A DNA stretch of 37,495 nt, from NCBI GenBank assembly GCA_013140485.1, contig JABFSS010000116.1:1-37495 (forward strand), read 5' to 3'. Below, in pieces: positions 9,748 through 31,217 of this stretch. The position numbers and the translations under genes are program-made. Origin of the DNA: Candidatus Peribacteraceae bacterium. Its GTDB lineage: Bacteria; Patescibacteriota; Gracilibacteria; Peribacterales; Peribacteraceae. The notes beneath the pieces are model-generated. The model made no database searches, was not told the origin of the DNA, and saw nothing but the letters and a program-made list of their open reading frames with translations. Within the stretch, counting starts at the first letter, position 1. Each line of letters opens with the position of its first letter.

Positions 9748-10609
9748 AGGACACAAGATCATCGTACACTTCGGGTCTTCGATTCTTCAGAAACATCCAT
9801 GCATCTTGCAGCGGCTTCACTTTGCCCAGATCGCACTTCACAATGACGATCTCTTCTTGATCTCCCGCCTTGGCGAGGATCGTGCTGCTGGGATCAGCGA
9901 CGAACGATCCGCCCCAGAAGTTCATCGCGGATTCCCTGCCGACACGATTGAGCGCGCAGACGAACACGTTGTTGGACGCCGCGTGTCCGAGCTGGGCATT
10001 GCGCCACATCTGTTCCCAATCGCCGGTGATGTTCTCTTCGACCGAATCATCGATCGTCCCGATGGCCGTGGGATAGAAGAGAATTTCGGCACCCTTGAGG
10101 ACGGCCATGCGGGCCGCCTCGGGATACCACTGGTCGTAACAGATCAGCGGGCAGATCTTTCCGTATTTCGTATCGAAGACTTTGATGCCGGTATCGCCCG
10201 GGCTGAAGTAATGTTGTTCGTGATAGAGGATGTCTTCGGGAATGTGCGTCTTTCGGTACGTGCCGAGCAACACACCGTCGGTATCGAAGACGGGCGTGGT
10301 GTTGTAGAACTTTCCATCGGCGTTCTTCTCGAAGATAGATCCGCCGACGAGGACGATCTGATGCTTCTTCGCGATCTGACTGAGCGCCTGCGTTGTGGAT
10401 CCGGGAATCGGCTCCGCGGTCTCAAAAGCCGATTCGTCATCTTTTTTCTGGCAGAAGTACGGGCTCAGGAAGAGCTCGGGGAGGCAGACGATCTGAGCAC
10501 CTTTCGTGACTGCGTGCGCGATCATTTCCTCTGCGTGACGGAGATTCTGCACAGAATCCGCAGACATCTTCATTTGGATGAGGCCGACTTTGACGATAGG
10601 TCGTAGCAC
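9746..10609 (-). CDS. aguB: N-carbamoylputrescine amidase (nitrilase / C-N hydrolase family)
   Basis: CLPELF (Glu), YRKTHIP (Lys), ICYDQWYPE (Cys) triad; adjacent to aguA. Probable GTG start at 10609. Confidence 0.88.
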   Translation of the reverse strand: MLRPIVKVGLIQMKMSADSVQNLRHAEEMIAHAVTKGAQIVCLPELFLSPYFCQKKDDESAFETAEPIPGSTTQALSQIAKKHQIVLVGGSIFEKNADGKFYNTTPVFDTDGVLLGTYRKTHIPEDILYHEQHYFSPGDTGIKVFDTKYGKICPLICYDQWYPEAARMAVLKGAEILFYPTAIGTIDDSVEENITGDWEQMWRNAQLGHAASNNVFVCALNRVGRESAMNFWGGSFVADPSSTILAKAGDQEEIVIVKCDLGKVKPLQDAWMFLKNRRPEVYDDLVS

Positions 10610-10616
10610 GAGAAGG

Positions 10617-10717
10617 AGAATAATAGAATAATAGAGTATTAGGAACCACTGGCTGACAAGAATGGCGGCATAAACCGCGCACAACTGTTCCTACTATTCT
10701 ATTATTCTATTACTCTA
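10617..10717. repeat. Inverted octamer array (GAATAATA / TATTATTC) in the divergent aguB/DHS intergenic region
   Basis: gaataatagaataatagagtatta ... tactattctattattctattactc. Confidence 0.7.
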
Positions 10718-10726
10718 ATCACGCCC

Positions 10727-11821
10727 ATGAAAAAATTCGAAAATCTCTCCCCCGCTCTTCGGAAGTTCATCCTCCCGGAAACCGACATCTCGCAGCTCGG
10801 CACCGTGTCCGATCTCGTGAAAAAAAGTGATACTCCGGTCTCTGCCTTCGCCGAAAGGACGCTTCGGCACTGCAACGGCGGCTCGACGCTCCAGGCCGCC
10901 CTCTGGCTGAAGGAACATCTGGCGAACGGAGGCAAGATCGTCGTCACGATCGCGGGCGCACTGAGTTCGTTCCAAGTCGGCGTCACGCTGGCGGAGTTGA
11001 TCCGAAAAGGAAAAGTTCATCTCGTCTCCGCGACCGCCGCGAACCACGAGGAATCGTACTATCGCTACGTCGCCCATTCGCACTACGCCTACATCCCCCG
11101 TTACACCGAACTCACGCCGGAACAGGAAGCCGAGCTGCGGGATGCCGGTCTGCGGCGGATCACCGATACGTTCCTCCCCGAGGATGAGAGCGTGCGCATC
11201 ATGGAGCCGCACCTCTGCAAAATGTGGCAGGACGCGCAAAAGAAAGGAGAGCGATACTTCCCGCACGAATACTTCCGCCGCCTCTACGCCGAAAAGTTGA
11301 TCCGGCCCGACCCCATGGCGAACGCCGGCGACTGCTGGACCTACGCCGCATACGAGAAAAATATTCCCATCGTCATCCCGGGCTTTGAAGATTCGACGAT
11401 GGGCAACATCTTCGCGAGCTACACGTACGGCGGAAAGTGGCGGACCGACAAGAGCATCCTTCTCGACCCCACGATCATGAAGGGCGGACTGGAGTACTTC
11501 ACCTGGATGTACGACTGGTACATGGAAGAGTCGAAAGACAGCCCCATCGCCTTCCTGCAGCTCGGCGGAGGCATCGCAGCCGATTTCCCCATCTGCGTCG
11601 TCCCCTCCCTGAAACACGATCTGCAGCACAAAGATGTCCGCGACTGGGCCGGCTTCGTCGAAATCGGTTCCTCGCCCATGTCATACGGCTCCTACTCCGG
11701 CGCGGGCGGAAAAGAGAAGATCACGTGGGACAAGCTCTCGACCAAGAGTTACTTCCAGATCATTCAAAGTGACGTCACCGTGGCCTTCCCCTGGATTGCA
11801 GCCATCCTCTTAGATCTCTGA
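10727..11821 (+). CDS. Deoxyhypusine synthase family protein (bacterial DHS-like, probable aminobutyl-transfer enzyme)
   Basis: TIAGALSS, ATAANHEE, GLRRITDTFLPE, PGFEDSTMGN, QLGGGIAADFPICVVP, GSYSGA..EKITWDKL (catalytic Lys position retained). Confidence 0.92.
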   Translation: MKKFENLSPALRKFILPETDISQLGTVSDLVKKSDTPVSAFAERTLRHCNGGSTLQAALWLKEHLANGGKIVVTIAGALSSFQVGVTLAELIRKGKVHLVSATAANHEESYYRYVAHSHYAYIPRYTELTPEQEAELRDAGLRRITDTFLPEDESVRIMEPHLCKMWQDAQKKGERYFPHEYFRRLYAEKLIRPDPMANAGDCWTYAAYEKNIPIVIPGFEDSTMGNIFASYTYGGKWRTDKSILLDPTIMKGGLEYFTWMYDWYMEESKDSPIAFLQLGGGIAADFPICVVPSLKHDLQHKDVRDWAGFVEIGSSPMSYGSYSGAGGKEKITWDKLSTKSYFQIIQSDVTVAFPWIAAILLDL

Positions 11822-27316: not shown

Positions 27317-28774
27317 ATGACCATCGCCGAGGCCCATGACAAGCTTGCTCATCGCGAAGTGAGCTCGACTGAACTGGTTCAAGCCTGCATCGACCGAATT
27401 GAGAAGGTCGACGGAACTCTCAATGCCGTCGTGTATAGGAATTTTGACAAAGCCCTAGATCAAGCCAAAAAAGTCGATAGTGCAGGCAAGTTTGATCACC
27501 CCCTGACGGGAATCCCCTACCTCGTGAAAGACGTGTATTGCGAAGAGGGCGTTCAAACGACAGCCTGCAGTAATGTTTTACGTGAAAAAAATTACATTCC
27601 GCCATTTGACTCGACCACATCGAAGAGGCTTAAAGCAGTGGGTGCCATCAGCATCGGCAAAACGAATACCGATGAATTCACGATGGGAGCCTCCACGGAG
27701 ACTTCCTGCTATGGCGTCACAAGAAACCCGTGGGATACCACCCGGGTCGCCGGAGGCTCCTCGGGAGGCTCTGCCGCGGGCGTTGCCGCAGGCGAGGGAA
27801 TTTTCGCATTAGGAACGGATACCGGCGGTTCTATTCGCCAACCGGCGGCCTTTTGCGGCATCACGGGTCTTCGAGTGACCTACGGCCGCACGAGTCGCTA
27901 CGGAGTGATGAGTATGGGCAGCTCGATTGATACCATCGGACCGCTCTGCAGGAATGTGGAGGATTTGTGCATCGTGACGCAAGCGATAGCCGGTAAGGAT
28001 CCCCTGGATGCGACTACGGGCGACGTTCCTGTCCCCGATTACCGTTCCGAACTGAAGAAAGGAGTGAAGGGGCTGCGTGTGGGTATACCCAAGGAGTACT
28101 TTTTGGAGGGCATGAATGCTGAGGTGGAGGCCTCCGTGAAGGCCGCCACGGAGGTGTTCAAAAAACTCGGCGCAACGGTGATAGATATTTCCCTGCCACA
28201 CACGAAATATGCCACGGCAACGTACTATGTTATCTGCCCGTGCGCAGTGAGTTCGAACATGGCCCGATACGACGGCATTCGGTACGGGCATACGGCGGAT
28301 AAGCCGCAGAATCTTCTCGAGTATTACGAGTGTGTACGCAGCACCGGCTTCGGTGCCGAAGTGAAGCGCCGCATCATGATCGGAACGTATGCGCTCTCGG
28401 CCGGGTACGTTGATCAGTATTACCGACAAGCGCAGAAAGTCCGGACGCTCATCAAGAAAGACTTTGACGATGCATTCCGGACCGTAGATGTGATCGTCTC
28501 GCCGGTCTCCCCCACTCCGGCATTCACTATCGGAGCGCATGACGCAAATCCGATCGACATGTATCTCGAAGATATCTTTCTCACGAGTCAGGTCATGGCG
28601 GGCATCCCCGCACTCTCCGTGCCCTGTGGATTTTCCAAAGCACAGGGCTCCGTCCCCGCTCTCCCGCTCGGACTCCAGATCATGGGAGCGCAATGGCAGG
28701 AAGCAACCATCCTCCGTGCTGCACATGCGTACGAACAGGCGACGGAGTGGCATATGAAGAAACCCGTTCTATAG
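27317..28774 (+). CDS. gatA: Asp/Glu-tRNA amidotransferase subunit A
   Basis: GKTNTDEFTMGASTE, GGSSGGSAA, GTDTGGSIRQPA, SNMARYDG, EVKRRIMIGTYALSAGY; alternative start at 27305. Confidence 0.97.
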   Translation: MTIAEAHDKLAHREVSSTELVQACIDRIEKVDGTLNAVVYRNFDKALDQAKKVDSAGKFDHPLTGIPYLVKDVYCEEGVQTTACSNVLREKNYIPPFDSTTSKRLKAVGAISIGKTNTDEFTMGASTETSCYGVTRNPWDTTRVAGGSSGGSAAGVAAGEGIFALGTDTGGSIRQPAAFCGITGLRVTYGRTSRYGVMSMGSSIDTIGPLCRNVEDLCIVTQAIAGKDPLDATTGDVPVPDYRSELKKGVKGLRVGIPKEYFLEGMNAEVEASVKAATEVFKKLGATVIDISLPHTKYATATYYVICPCAVSSNMARYDGIRYGHTADKPQNLLEYYECVRSTGFGAEVKRRIMIGTYALSAGYVDQYYRQAQKVRTLIKKDFDDAFRTVDVIVSPVSPTPAFTIGAHDANPIDMYLEDIFLTSQVMAGIPALSVPCGFSKAQGSVPALPLGLQIMGAQWQEATILRAAHAYEQATEWHMKKPVL

Positions 28775-28856
28775 ATCAACTTCATTTGATTTTTGGAATT
28801 TATTTTTTTTGCTTCGTCTGACGGTGAAAAAAGTTTAAATCTCAAACACCAAAAAT

Positions 28857-29441
28857 CTATCGGAAGAGCCAACTCAGTACCCCCTTCTTCGGAGCCTCCG
28901 TGGAGTCCTTCTTGAAGACTCCATGCTTGGCCTCCATGACTTTCTTTTTTGTGGCTCTCTTGATCTCGATGGAGGGCTCCATGGAGGGTGTGTCGACGGT
29001 GACCGGAGTAGGGGATTCAGCAGCCGGCGGAGCGAGTCTTTGTTGCAAGGATCCCATGAGAATGTTTCCTTCGCGTAATCTGTCATTCAATGACTGGATG
29101 ACATCCCACTGCTTTTCGATTTGCTGGTTCTTGAGATCGAGCTCACGGCGGAGAATTTTCAAAATGTCTTCCGTGAGGCCCGATGACGAATCCGAGTGCG
29201 ATTTTTTCTCTACTGTCGGGGCTGAAGCAAAATTCCTCAGAAGGACGTCTTCTCGGATCTTCCAGGTGAAGTTTTCTCCTTTCTTCTTGAACGCATCGAC
29301 TTCCTTTAGTGACGGCTCGATCCCCGCACGGTCCGGATGCGACGCAGCCTCGGCGATCGTCTTGATCAAGCGGCGGACGGTGCTGTGAGAACGACCTGTC
29401 CTGGTTGCCGCTTCGGCGATGGTTAAGAGGGGAGTAGTCAT
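28857..29441 (-). CDS. HTH / coiled-coil / amphipathic C-tail protein (RacA- or DUF536-like architecture)
   Basis: LTIAEAATRTGRSHSTVRRLIK HTH; heptad region LRRELDLKNQQIEKQWDVIQSLNDRLRE; tail KKGVLSWLFR. Confidence 0.8.
   Translation of the reverse strand: MTTPLLTIAEAATRTGRSHSTVRRLIKTIAEAASHPDRAGIEPSLKEVDAFKKKGENFTWKIREDVLLRNFASAPTVEKKSHSDSSSGLTEDILKILRRELDLKNQQIEKQWDVIQSLNDRLREGNILMGSLQQRLAPPAAESPTPVTVDTPSMEPSIEIKRATKKKVMEAKHGVFKKDSTEAPKKGVLSWLFR
28896..28986. repeat. CTCCRYGGAG palindrome cluster in the 3' end of the HTH gene
   Basis: ctccgtggag 28896, ctcgatggag 28965, ctccatggag 28977; partial ctccatg at 28919 and 28932. Confidence 0.7.
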
Positions 29442-29443
29442 GG

Positions 29444-29511
29444 GCTCCAAACTACCCTCCACGGAGCCTCCATGGAAGCCTCCAGACTGCGAATGACTAG
29501 CCTCCACGGCA
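29444..29511. promoter_or_regulatory. CTCCRYGGAG palindrome cluster upstream of the HTH gene (putative binding sites)
   Basis: ctccacggag 29457, ctccatggaa 29468, ctcca 29480, ctccacggca 29502. Confidence 0.65.
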
Positions 29512-29534: not shown

Positions 29535-31217
29535 TCAGTACGTGTGCTGCTCATAGCACTGCACGCAGTAGACCTTGTATCCGCGTGCCGGATCAAACGA
29601 CGAAGGTGTGGGCTTTCCGCAGTTCTGGCACTGCACCTCCCAAAGCTTCTGCGGATTACGCCGCTGCATGCGGATTTCGTTGCGCTCGTCCTGGTGCAGG
29701 CGAGGCAACGCGCGGCCGCGCGAACGGAGGTACTCGAATTCTTTCGGCATGATCTGATATGGCCGCCCTGTTTTTTCGCACCGAAGCACCTGCTTGCAGA
29801 TGGATACGTCCACCGCGGCATCGTCCTGAGGCAACGCCTGCATCGTGCCGGAGTAGCTCTGCTTCCGTTCCCAATCGAGGTGGGTATCTTCTTCGTACAG
29901 CCATCCGCGCGCCTGAATCTGTTCTTTGGTGAGGGGGAAGTACTTCTGCGCGACGGTGAAGTTGTAGGGGAAAGGGGAGAGGCGGGCGGGGAAGAATTCT
30001 CCCCACTCGCCGGTCGACTGCATGTGCGCGATGATGCGCGGGAGAAGGCTGAGGTACTCGTCTTTGGTGTACTGCTTGTTGAGGATGCAGTACTTGTGGT
30101 GGTGCAGCGATACGCATCCAAACACGTCGCGGCACGAGATGCAGTATTCGCTGTAGTGCGTATCGTGGCTGAAGTGACAGAGGATGGTGGAGATACACGA
30201 ATGCTGCCCGAACGCCGAGAAGCCTTCGTACAGCTTTTCGATCCTCCCGAAGAAATCCATGTCCTGGCACGTCCGTCCCTCGAAGCCGAAGCTCGAGTGG
30301 GACACGTCATCGCATTTCTCCAGATCGAAACTGTTGGTGCAGCGCAGGCAGCGCCACAGCCGGTCGCCGGTGACGCTCTCGCTCTGGATATTCTTGACGC
30401 CGCAATGGGGGAGTCGTCTGCGCATCGCTTCGTAGCGCATTTGGAACTCGGTCCACGCCTCCGGATTTTGTTTCAGCTCCTGTACTTTGAGTTTGTAGTC
30501 CTGCTCCGACATGCTCTCGTTGAGCACGTAGTACTTTTTGTGGCGCAGGCCCACGCACCCCAGACAGTCGGAACACCCTTTGCAGTCGTAACAGCTCTCG
30601 CAGTCCATCATGTTCTCGGAGCTGTCGACGTTGTAGCAGTTGAAGCAGACGCGCGCGTCCACACACGAGTGGCAGAGCTCGCAGTCGTAGGAAAGCGAAC
30701 AATCGAAACAGTCCCGGCAGCGAATAGCCCAGTACGTGAAATAGCATCCTTCGCACAGGTCGCTGCCGATGGCCAGGTAGCAGTCTTTGTTGGAGACGCA
30801 GTGATTTCCGTAGAGCGCGTTCTCCACGTTGGTATTGTGGAGATTCGGCCGCGGCACCACGGCCTTGAGTGCCGCGAATTGCTCGAAGAACGGCCTCGAG
30901 AAATCGTAGTCGCGCCCAAAGTGCAGCGGATCCATTTTGTCGTAGTCCCACCAGGAGCGTTGCTCAAACGTGACGATTTTCTTTACGGATTCCTGCGGAT
31001 AGAGGGCGATTATCCTGACGCCCGATTGGTCGCATGTCCGGTAATACATGTGCCGCTCATTGCGGAACGCGAGCCGGCGCTGACGACGACACTGCGGACA
31101 ATTGCGCGGCGGCCCGGGGAGTCCCATCTCGCGGAGGAATTCCTGTTCCGGCTTCTCAACCGAGAACTCTTGGCCGCAGGTGGAACAGGGGGATGCGGAG
31201 AGTGATGTGGGATTCAT
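29535..31217 (-). CDS. Cys-rich protein with terminal CxxC...CxxC zinc ribbons and central Cys repeats (CPR-type family)
   Basis: CSTC...CPQCRRQRRLAFRNER; central periodic Cys tracts; C-terminal CQNC...VYCVQCY. Confidence 0.88.
   Translation of the reverse strand: MNPTSLSASPCSTCGQEFSVEKPEQEFLREMGLPGPPRNCPQCRRQRRLAFRNERHMYYRTCDQSGVRIIALYPQESVKKIVTFEQRSWWDYDKMDPLHFGRDYDFSRPFFEQFAALKAVVPRPNLHNTNVENALYGNHCVSNKDCYLAIGSDLCEGCYFTYWAIRCRDCFDCSLSYDCELCHSCVDARVCFNCYNVDSSENMMDCESCYDCKGCSDCLGCVGLRHKKYYVLNESMSEQDYKLKVQELKQNPEAWTEFQMRYEAMRRRLPHCGVKNIQSESVTGDRLWRCLRCTNSFDLEKCDDVSHSSFGFEGRTCQDMDFFGRIEKLYEGFSAFGQHSCISTILCHFSHDTHYSEYCISCRDVFGCVSLHHHKYCILNKQYTKDEYLSLLPRIIAHMQSTGEWGEFFPARLSPFPYNFTVAQKYFPLTKEQIQARGWLYEEDTHLDWERKQSYSGTMQALPQDDAAVDVSICKQVLRCEKTGRPYQIMPKEFEYLRSRGRALPRLHQDERNEIRMQRRNPQKLWEVQCQNCGKPTPSSFDPARGYKVYCVQCYEQHTY

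Follow-up and report, generated by a model that had tools for sequence, protein, structure and literature searches.

The stretch of DNA analyzed here (the window; 37,495 nucleotides [nt], contig C93 of G000, a genome in 130 contigs, 97.6% complete, from an uncultured, groundwater-type Candidatus Peribacteraceae bacterium) carries on its minus strand, beside gatA, a single gene whose 194-amino-acid product, P0001, has a helix-turn-helix (HTH) at its N terminus, a long helix, a linker, and a short basic and hydrophobic C-terminal tail. Copies of the palindrome CTCCRYGGAG lie directly upstream of this gene and again inside its 3′ end. An initial annotation of the window had proposed that the gene and its palindromes form an autoregulated, centromere-like cassette that could tether DNA to the membrane. 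As far as sequences can tell, comparison with related genomes has confirmed the observation behind this proposal and has considerably strengthened it; the proposal itself is supported in part, with DNA binding, looping, membrane binding, and any centromere role being inferred.

The gene, its product, and its repeats

The palindromes were found where the initial annotation had placed them, upstream of the coding region and inside its 3′ part, as exact copies, imperfect copies, and one half-site (Table 1). Successive copies are spaced 11, 12, and 22 nt apart upstream and 12 nt apart inside the gene, and the internal copy nearest the tail, taken with its flank (28884-28905), is 82% complementary to positions 29457-29478 of the upstream array, forming an inverted repeat with it. 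The internal copies also shape the peptide, as had been claimed, in that they fix the tripeptides S153-M-E and S180-T-E. The window contains 4 exact copies of CTCCRYGGAG where 0.31 would be expected, and 4 or more were seen in none of 100 shuffles. The genome-wide scan suggested with the initial annotation returned 14 exact copies in the 1,518,133 bases of the 130 contigs, where base composition would give about 9. Although the motif is thus not common in general, three of the 14 copies fall within 571 bases at this gene, and no other place in the genome has five hits, of at most one mismatch each, in 700 bases. The motif thus stands above background at a sole cluster, and, as described below, palindromes accompany the homologs as well, so that these two refuting outcomes named in the initial annotation did not occur.

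The open frame runs on the minus strand from either a GTG at 29507 or an ATG at 29441 to the stop codon at 28857. Starting from the GTG would give a longer N terminus in which the repeats encode S-M-E-A peptides, but this candidate was rejected as probably not the start, given that the repeats occur in all three frames across homologs. We take the ATG as the start because the conserved N termini of homologs align to its methionine and because the upstream repeats keep no constant frame.

The layout of HTH, coiled coil, P/T/S-rich linker, and terminal KKGVLSWLFR on which the initial annotation rested is borne out by the translation, by Pfam, and by an AlphaFold2 model built with a 44-sequence alignment. 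HTH_17 matches residues 5 to 27 with an E value of 4e-4, below the Pfam cutoff, and two excisionase-type profiles, TIGR01764 of NCBIfam and phrog_66 of PHROGs, each match at E 0.003, both likewise subthreshold; at E≤0.1, HTH_17 was found in 36 and MerR in 11 of 44 family members. In the model, residues 1 to 72 form a compact domain with a predicted local distance difference test score (pLDDT) of 86 to 94 (84 when the N-terminal domain is modeled alone) and residues 87 to 136 form one helix (pLDDT of 88 to 96); residues 143 to 179 are disordered, with pLDDT values below 50 at 143 to 164 and 166 to 179, and the tail appears as a short helical turn of low confidence. Foldseek gave no match to the model at E≤0.001. 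Its best rows, all weak, were without exception winged HTH domains of the MerR/excisionase type, namely, BldC (probability 0.92, E 0.12), CbpM, SoxR, RacA (5i44 and 5i41), and Xis, while a whole-model VIA-align comparison matched only coiled coils or long helices at a Z score of about 6. A search of the PDB by sequence profile with the family alignment (A1) found no relative, its best match, Atg16 at E 0.005, being coiled-coil noise. The long helix is the most conserved part of the family alignment and is presumed from the model to be a coiled-coil oligomerization domain; a homodimer prediction for residues 1 to 142 scored 0.09 against a mark of 0.42. In contrast to canonical MerR transcription factors, neither the alignment nor the model shows an effector domain after this helix, and Pfam gives no ParB_N match in P0001. 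A stand-alone excisionase of the Xis/HTH_17 kind was considered and rejected: the protein has 120 extra residues, its gene stands between gatA and a zinc-finger protein gene, and it is single copy and syntenic.

Four parts of the protein are conserved in the family, namely, the HTH, its wing (FKKKGENFTW), the long helix, and the terminal tail, whereas the linker varies in both length and sequence. The tail of P0001 has two basic residues, a glycine at position 3, and hydrophobic and aromatic residues thereafter. By a pattern devised within this analysis (basic/hydrophobic/x/W or F), 113 of 119 close homologs have a matching tail, and a cruder basic-plus-hydrophobic rule is satisfied by 92 of 126 wider representatives. 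The wider family includes tails such as KKGFFRRIFGK, KKSFFSRLFRG, and KKSFFGSLFGK, which we take to be very like that of Escherichia coli MinD. On this basis, the conserved, MinD-like KKGVLSWLFR type of tail is likely to be a membrane anchor.

Table 1. Coordinates of the candidate tether gene, the parts of its product, and the repeats at its locus
Feature	Position	Strand	Remarks
Coding sequence of P0001 (194 amino acids)	28857..29441	minus	Stop codon included; start is the ATG at 29441
Winged HTH, MerR/excisionase type, residues 1-72, recognition helix RSHSTVRRLI	29226..29441	minus	Predicted from subthreshold Pfam matches, AlphaFold2, and weak Foldseek matches
Single long helix, residues 87-136, LKNQQIEKQW...LNDRLREGNILMGSLQQRL	29034..29183	minus	Predicted by AlphaFold2; invariant alignment columns
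Disordered linker rich in P/S/T/A/K, residues 137-184	28890..29033	minus	Hosts the internal DNA motifs; low pLDDT, alignment gaps
Putative membrane-targeting tail KKGVLSWLFR, residues 185-194	28860..28889	minus	Pattern conserved in homologs
Upstream array, units of about 12 nt, running up to the start codon	29445..29511	unstranded	Presumed operator or docking site
Upstream copy 1	29457-29466		Exact CTCCRYGGAG
Upstream copy 2, CTCCATGGAA	29468-29477		1 mismatch
Upstream partial copy	29480-29489		CTCC half only
Upstream copy at the far end, CTCCACGGCA	29502-29511		2 mismatches
Internal pair, 12 nt apart	28965..28986		CTCGATGGAG (28965, 1 mismatch) and CTCCATGGAG (28977, exact); codes P-S-M-E-P-S-I-E
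Internal exact copy, CTCCGTGGAG	28896..28905		Codes S180-T-E just before the tail

Further copies of the motif lie on the plus strand within gatA. The fourth exact copy of the window, CTCCACGGAG at 27691-27700, encodes the S-T-E of MGASTETS. This tripeptide is presumably a conserved GatA motif, and the copy was left out of the cassette. Two one-mismatch units spaced exactly 12 nt apart follow at 28132-28153, 440 nt past the exact copy, where they encode E-A-S-V-K-A-A-T-E; another locus, L017, carries two exact units at the corresponding place, again spaced by 12 nt. The gatA copies may provide additional docking sites or may simply follow from the peptide. Between gatA and the candidate tether gene, which are convergent, lies an AT-rich spacer of 82 nt (28775-28856) with runs of T and A and imperfect inverted repeats (28788-28801 and 28844-28857), in which a simple scan called no terminator. 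Scanning the locus for consensus (sigma-70-like) promoters and terminators gave 0 sites.

Conservation of the repeats and change of the repeat word among relatives

Close homologs were compared at 37 loci (L001 and L013 to L048, with L049 and L050 dropped as cut at the 5′ end). The motif with at most one mismatch lies just upstream of the start in 36 of the 37 (exactly in 25) and within the linker-coding 3′ part of the gene in 30 (exactly in 15); homologs thus bear palindromes at both gene ends, as the initial annotation would have it, in 30 of 37 cases. Exact copies are densest in the 100 nt that precede the HTH codons (6.9 per kb), followed by the intervals +400 to +500 (4.1 per kb) and +500 to +600 (1.9 per kb), and many loci bear the motif at the position homologous to +440, counted from the HTH anchor. 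Over its first 380 nt, the gene contains 0 exact copies; the upstream flanks contain 2 in a total of about 80 kb (about 0.03 per kb), and the downstream gatA side has about 0.3 per kb. The upstream element consists of three tandem units running up to the start codon, with the consensus CTTCACGGAGGC CTCCATGGAGGC TACCnTGGAGGCC ATG.

These repeats have been selected as nucleotides and not as peptide. The 25 exact upstream copies are distributed over the three frames relative to the open reading frame as 15, 7, and 3, and the element would read S-M-E-A-T-M-E-A-M, P-P-W-R, or L-H-G-G in that frame, depending on the genome; with all three frames in use, it is not a conserved peptide. Inside the gene, codon choice is forced: among 30 internal S[MVTA]E tripeptides, serine is encoded by TCC in 29 (48% elsewhere in these genes) and glutamate by GAG in 29 (51% elsewhere), and the preceding codon ends in C in 24 (34% overall). 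Selection at the nucleotide level is concluded from these two sets of observations taken together, which are drawn from related loci and hence are not independent counts, from genes whose proteins are 48 to 74% identical, so that synonymous sites should be free.

The family reaches well beyond these loci. A word-indexed search returned 207 proteins, most of them unnamed and two labeled as hypothetical proteins (Candidatus Peregrinibacteria and Peribacteraceae). The gene is present once per genome in all 10 genomes of the genus, including G000, and a profile search found matches in 27 of 301 genomes of the class. A hidden Markov model scan of 1.84 billion representatives gave 699 clusters (at 50% identity) with E≤0.001 and 273 with E≤1e-10.

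In the remote relatives, the repeated word changes together with the protein, which is the covariation between palindromes and homologs that the initial annotation had suggested looking for. In L011 and L012, at 31 to 34% identity, the recognition helix reads KAEITIRR in place of RSxSTIRR, and arrays of TGATCA occur with no CTCCRYGGAG. L052, an 11.2-kb stretch around one of these two, has 9 of its 10 TGATCA words at −360 to −33, members of the family f24 have 4 to 6 copies of TTTTGACTAGTCAAAA at about −260 to −90, and at other remote loci, TGATTAATCA, GGGTCAC, or CGCCTATACA is repeated upstream. A fixed rule counted a locus as positive when some word of 6 to 8 nt occurred four or more times in the 315 nt upstream and no more than twice in the rest of the locus; by this rule, 13 of 19 remote loci were positive, compared with 2 of 122 control windows from the same loci. 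Most of these relatives also end, by eye, in tails like KKKWWRLW or RSFLGYFFDWLSH; L096 and L098 do not.

Within the genomes searched, the sites are largely confined to the gene. In the closed genome G214 (1,306,353 bases), all 5 occurrences of TGACTAGTCR lie at 325,301-325,469, just before the gene at 325,554, and the gene-adjacent share of a genome's sites is 5 of 5 in G243 and 5 of 6 in G054. CTCCRYGGAG is at the gene in 4 of 8 cases in G041 and in 1 of 36 in G045, the upstream copies of which are degenerate. As a separate observation, three f24 upstream regions (L087, L088, and L096) carry a second word, TTCGCCTATACA, in 3 to 4 copies between the TTTTGACTAGTCAAAA palindromes and the start codon; it may belong to a promoter or be bound by a second factor.

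Genomic setting and chromosome position

The gene lies between yidC, rnpA, gatC, and the convergent gatA on one side and a gene for a 560-amino-acid treble-clef zinc-finger protein on the other. The latter (29535-31217, minus strand) has treble-clef matches at both ends (PF13451 and PF23477) with Cys-rich repeats between them and adjoins the homolog at only 1 of 38 loci taken from species-representative genomes (L030, 39% identity). Among these 38 further loci, gatA is downstream in 27, in gatCA-rnpA-yidC synteny, and the upstream neighbor varies; as the array stays in place nonetheless, it travels with the candidate tether gene.

The window contains no gene for a partner nucleoside triphosphatase (NTPase; ParA, ParM, or TubZ), and G000 gave no match to minD (TIGR01968) or AAA_31, for which all 14 control genomes were positive. 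AAA_31 matched in 1 of 24 other genomes of the taxonomic family. Three ParB_N frames are found within 11 kb of contig C79 of G000 (at 28306, 32799, and 38953).

The initial annotation had pointed to the nearby rnpA-yidC, origin-proximal in many bacteria. The window has one DnaA-box-like hit, no box cluster, and no skew switch; in G000, dnaA is on contig C128 and the best DnaA-box cluster (4 boxes) is on C118, neither of them on C93. Chromosome position was therefore read from relatives on long contigs, in five genomes of four genera (G243 belongs to the same genus as G214; loci L040/L073, L096/L102, L093/L105, L078/L103, and L095/L104). As a fraction of the chromosome or contig, the homolog is separated from dnaA by 0.48 in G041, 0.48 in G214, 0.47 in G243, 0.48 in G174, and 0.49 in G232. 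This regularity raised the idea of a terminus-binding protein like Tus or RTP, which was rejected for the closed genome G174. There, the mean-corrected cumulative GC skew (over 97% of the contig) is lowest near 20 kb and highest near 705 kb, and an 8-box DnaA cluster lies at 10,506-10,781. The homolog, at 162,374, is 152 kb, or 12% of the chromosome, from this cluster and some 540 kb from the point of highest skew; dnaA, at 442 kb from the cluster, does not lie at the origin either. The locus is thus in the origin-side part of the chromosome in G174, and it probably is in two further genomes. In G232, sampled skew rises from a low to a high level between 60 and 87 kb, and the gene is nearby, at 97 kb. 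In G214, 21 sampled 20-kb stretches were positive throughout, with the lowest skew at 260 to 280 kb and a return to high values by 315 kb, the gene being at 325.5 kb. The skew of G041 changes sign four times and is uninformative.

In G214 and G232, the skew is of one sign over nearly the whole length of the chromosome, with only one step between two levels (positive in 21 of 21 samples in G214, L102 and L126 to L145; negative in 19 of 21 in G232, L104 and L186 to L205). A similar strand-wide G/C disparity has been reported for some Microgenomates (PMC7143001).

Known tethers, rival explanations, and a possible one-gene device

Judged by layout, the closest known proteins are RocS and RicO, which the initial annotation had not named. 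RocS of Streptococcus pneumoniae links nucleoid and membrane by a winged HTH, a coiled coil, a DUF536 domain, and a MinD-like helix, and is the main segregation factor of a host without ParA; a single helix is insufficient for membrane binding (PMC11500499). Its tail, a kink-helix, has Lys as its first residue and Gly as its third (PMC13042908), the positions at which the K-K-G start of the P0001 family tail places the same residues. By its predicted layout, P0001 would share with RocS a MerR-type winged HTH, a central coiled coil, a variable linker, and a short MinD-like tail, and the two are of about equal size (RocS numbering runs to at least 160, compared with the 194 residues of P0001). 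The host of RocS has ParB but no ParA, and the RocS membrane anchor requires multivalency. The differences are that RocS comes from Firmicutes and P0001 from the candidate phyla radiation (CPR); that RocS has, after its first coiled coil, a DUF536 domain with three essential glutamines, which is not detected in P0001; and that RocS is thought to bind DNA by topology, according to the RicO preprint, the accessible part of which mentions no site array at the gene for RocS itself (bioRxiv 10.64898/2026.03.06.710092).

RicO of Staphylococcus aureus binds both the membrane and nine 18-bp ricS sites around oriC, and the same preprint groups RicO, RacA, and RocS as one Firmicutes family, leaving its reach outside Firmicutes open (bioRxiv 10.64898/2026.03.06.710092). 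Compared by description, RicO resembles what is proposed for P0001 in binding a specific short motif and bridging DNA to the membrane; the nine ricS sites, however, are scattered over about 700 kb, whereas here clustered sites all lie at the protein's own gene, coding sequence included. RacA of Bacillus subtilis has a MerR-type winged HTH and a coiled coil, recognizes repeated sites that resemble a centromere, and attaches the chromosome to the envelope, but it has no amphipathic tail, is anchored by DivIVA, has many sites around the origin, and is specific to sporulation. The staphylococcal plasmid protein pSK1 Par shares DUF536 and the tail with RocS and may tether DNA to the membrane (PMC11500499). 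It exemplifies partition by a single protein free of any NTPase, with a winged HTH, a coiled coil, and a tail nearly identical to those of RocS and MinD, and it binds repeats on its own replicon; it differs in being plasmid borne and in having DUF536, the P0001 gene being chromosomal, syntenic, and single copy. The repeats bound by Par are located upstream of par.

In plasmid partition cassettes, phased repeat arrays that lie in the binder's own promoter and serve as both centromere and operator are the rule (bioRxiv 10.1101/2022.04.29.490116). StbA/stbS of R388, ParR/parC, and TubR/tubC have repeats of 9 to 12 bp phased by 11 to 12 bp in this position, with two sets in stbS, and P0001 has the same feature in its 11- to 12-nt units running up to the ATG, with arrays at 36 of 37 close and 13 of 19 remote loci. 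These are plasmid systems with other DNA-binding folds and, in the accessible descriptions, no membrane tail, and ParR and TubR work with an adjacent NTPase, of which there is none beside the P0001 gene. On every feature that can be read from its sequence, P0001 would thus work like RocS, RicO, and Par; since DUF536 was not detected, we place it beside RocS in apparent mode of action and not as an established member of that family. We found no prior description in the literature of RocS/RacA-type or amphipathic-helix chromosome segregation proteins in the CPR.

The reading we prefer, which we believe about as much as we doubt, is that of an autoregulated DNA-to-membrane tether of the RocS/RicO/pSK1 Par kind, bound to its own locus. 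The N-terminal winged HTH, oligomerized via the long helix, would bind the CTCC-RY-GGAG units at their 12-nt phasing, and occupancy of the array abutting the start codon would shut the gene off. The second set of sites, about 460 to 560 bp downstream in the linker codons, could be bridged with the first into one nucleoprotein complex over the gene. The flexible linker ends in the MinD/RocS-like basic-Gly-hydrophobic tail, several copies of which, gathered on DNA, could keep this assembly attached to the cytoplasmic membrane. In this way, the cassette, with its single protein, would position or partition the chromosome of a lineage with no detected ParA or MinD ATPase.

Several observations weigh against this reading. 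DUF536 (PF04394) was found neither in P0001 (E≤1) nor in a six-frame search of G000 (E≤10) nor in 44 family members (E≤0.1). Subthreshold PF04394 matches occur in 2 of 120 wider representatives, the better being P0237 (residues 96 to 112, 18.5 bits against a cutoff of 20.7). The Eisenberg hydrophobic moment of KKGVLSWLFR is 0.37, which is moderate, ranking 88th of 185 windows in P0001. In the closest relative, L013, the upstream copies are degenerate and none is exact. The remote relatives match the family profile over the HTH only, across 25 to 31 positions, and their layout (frames of 160 to 218 amino acids, with a wing that reads TPQGF[NH]Y and a coiled coil toward the C terminus) was judged by eye. 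The distribution of the gene is not complementary to that of ParA: it was found in 11 of the 40 genomes compared, and the ParA family is missing nearly throughout the taxonomic family, including where the gene was not found. Finally, all sites are at one gene, unlike those of RicO and RacA, which are spread over hundreds of kilobases.

This last arrangement is exactly what a plain autorepressor predicts, and a plain autorepressor is the main rival explanation. Under it, multiple operators at the protein's own gene, both promoter proximal and intragenic as in gal and lac, would do nothing beyond repression, and the tail would serve oligomerization, turnover, or another partner. The abutment of the upstream array on the start codon, the lack of a partner NTPase, and the lack of a RicO-like spread of sites, with every detectable one at the gene itself, all fit such a regulator. 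It would be hard, however, to maintain a regulator of nothing but itself as a single-copy gene throughout a genus and in a family of 699 clusters; only the HTH and the helix are more constant than the tail, which in the wider family bears a close likeness to the MinD type; and 4 to 10 sites per array exceed the need of autorepression. We therefore regard a plain autorepressor as possible but rather unlikely.

It is improbable that the repeats belong to something else, such as another protein, a replication origin or terminus element that happens to adjoin the gene (the Tus-TerB case), or a mobile element whose ends they would mark and which would carry an excisionase-like gene. The subthreshold excisionase-type matches and the near-constant separation of the homolog from dnaA in five genomes speak for such an origin, but the repeats change whenever the adjacent protein does and stay beside it despite differing upstream neighbors, no integrase is adjacent to this largely syntenic locus, in G174 the locus is at neither origin nor terminus, and the window has no DnaA-box cluster. 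Still less probable, to the point that we give it little weight, is an element acting in RNA, in which self-complementary CUCC..GGAG units of the 5′ leader pair with the 3′ coding copies or with each other to control translation or mRNA stability. A Shine-Dalgarno-like GGAGG occurs three times before the ATG, and the 5′ copy, which reads CUCCGUGGAG on the mRNA, shows full complementarity to its 3′ counterpart at 28896, within the 22-nt stretch of partial complementarity noted above. Against this, the 5′ region folds no better than shuffled sequences (z of −0.64; 52 of 200 shuffles as good), Rfam gave no match beyond two rows at chance level, and the center dinucleotides of upstream and internal copies do not covary. 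Moreover, the unrelated words of remote relatives (TGATCA and GACTAGTC) extend over 250 to 350 nt and lack any likeness to a Shine-Dalgarno sequence, which is typical of protein-binding sites.

Returning to the proposed tether, its cis element is unusually clean, being short, phased, lineage specific, and, across the genomes that were searched, unique to this locus, so that binding specificity, autoregulation, membrane targeting, and plasmid stabilization are directly testable with synthetic DNA. The locus also offers a clear example of a DNA site that constrains codon choice inside the gene of its probable binder. Chromosome segregation without ParA is an open question, and work on RocS (2019 to 2024) and RicO (a 2026 preprint) has shown that a small protein with an HTH, a coiled coil, and an amphipathic helix can do much of it in cocci. 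The family of 699 clusters brings the same layout to CPR bacteria. Going further, and only tentatively, Peribacteria and neighboring CPR lineages, with no detected ParA or MinD, might position their chromosomes by a one-gene device. The gene itself, with the sole specific docking sites of the tether around and within it, would be the membrane-attached centromere, and the protein-site pair would be respecified in each lineage (CTCCRYGGAG, TGATCA, GACTAGTC, and others), much like plasmid incompatibility groups. If true, this would carry the RocS/RicO/Par principle outside Firmicutes and supply a defined cis site for it.

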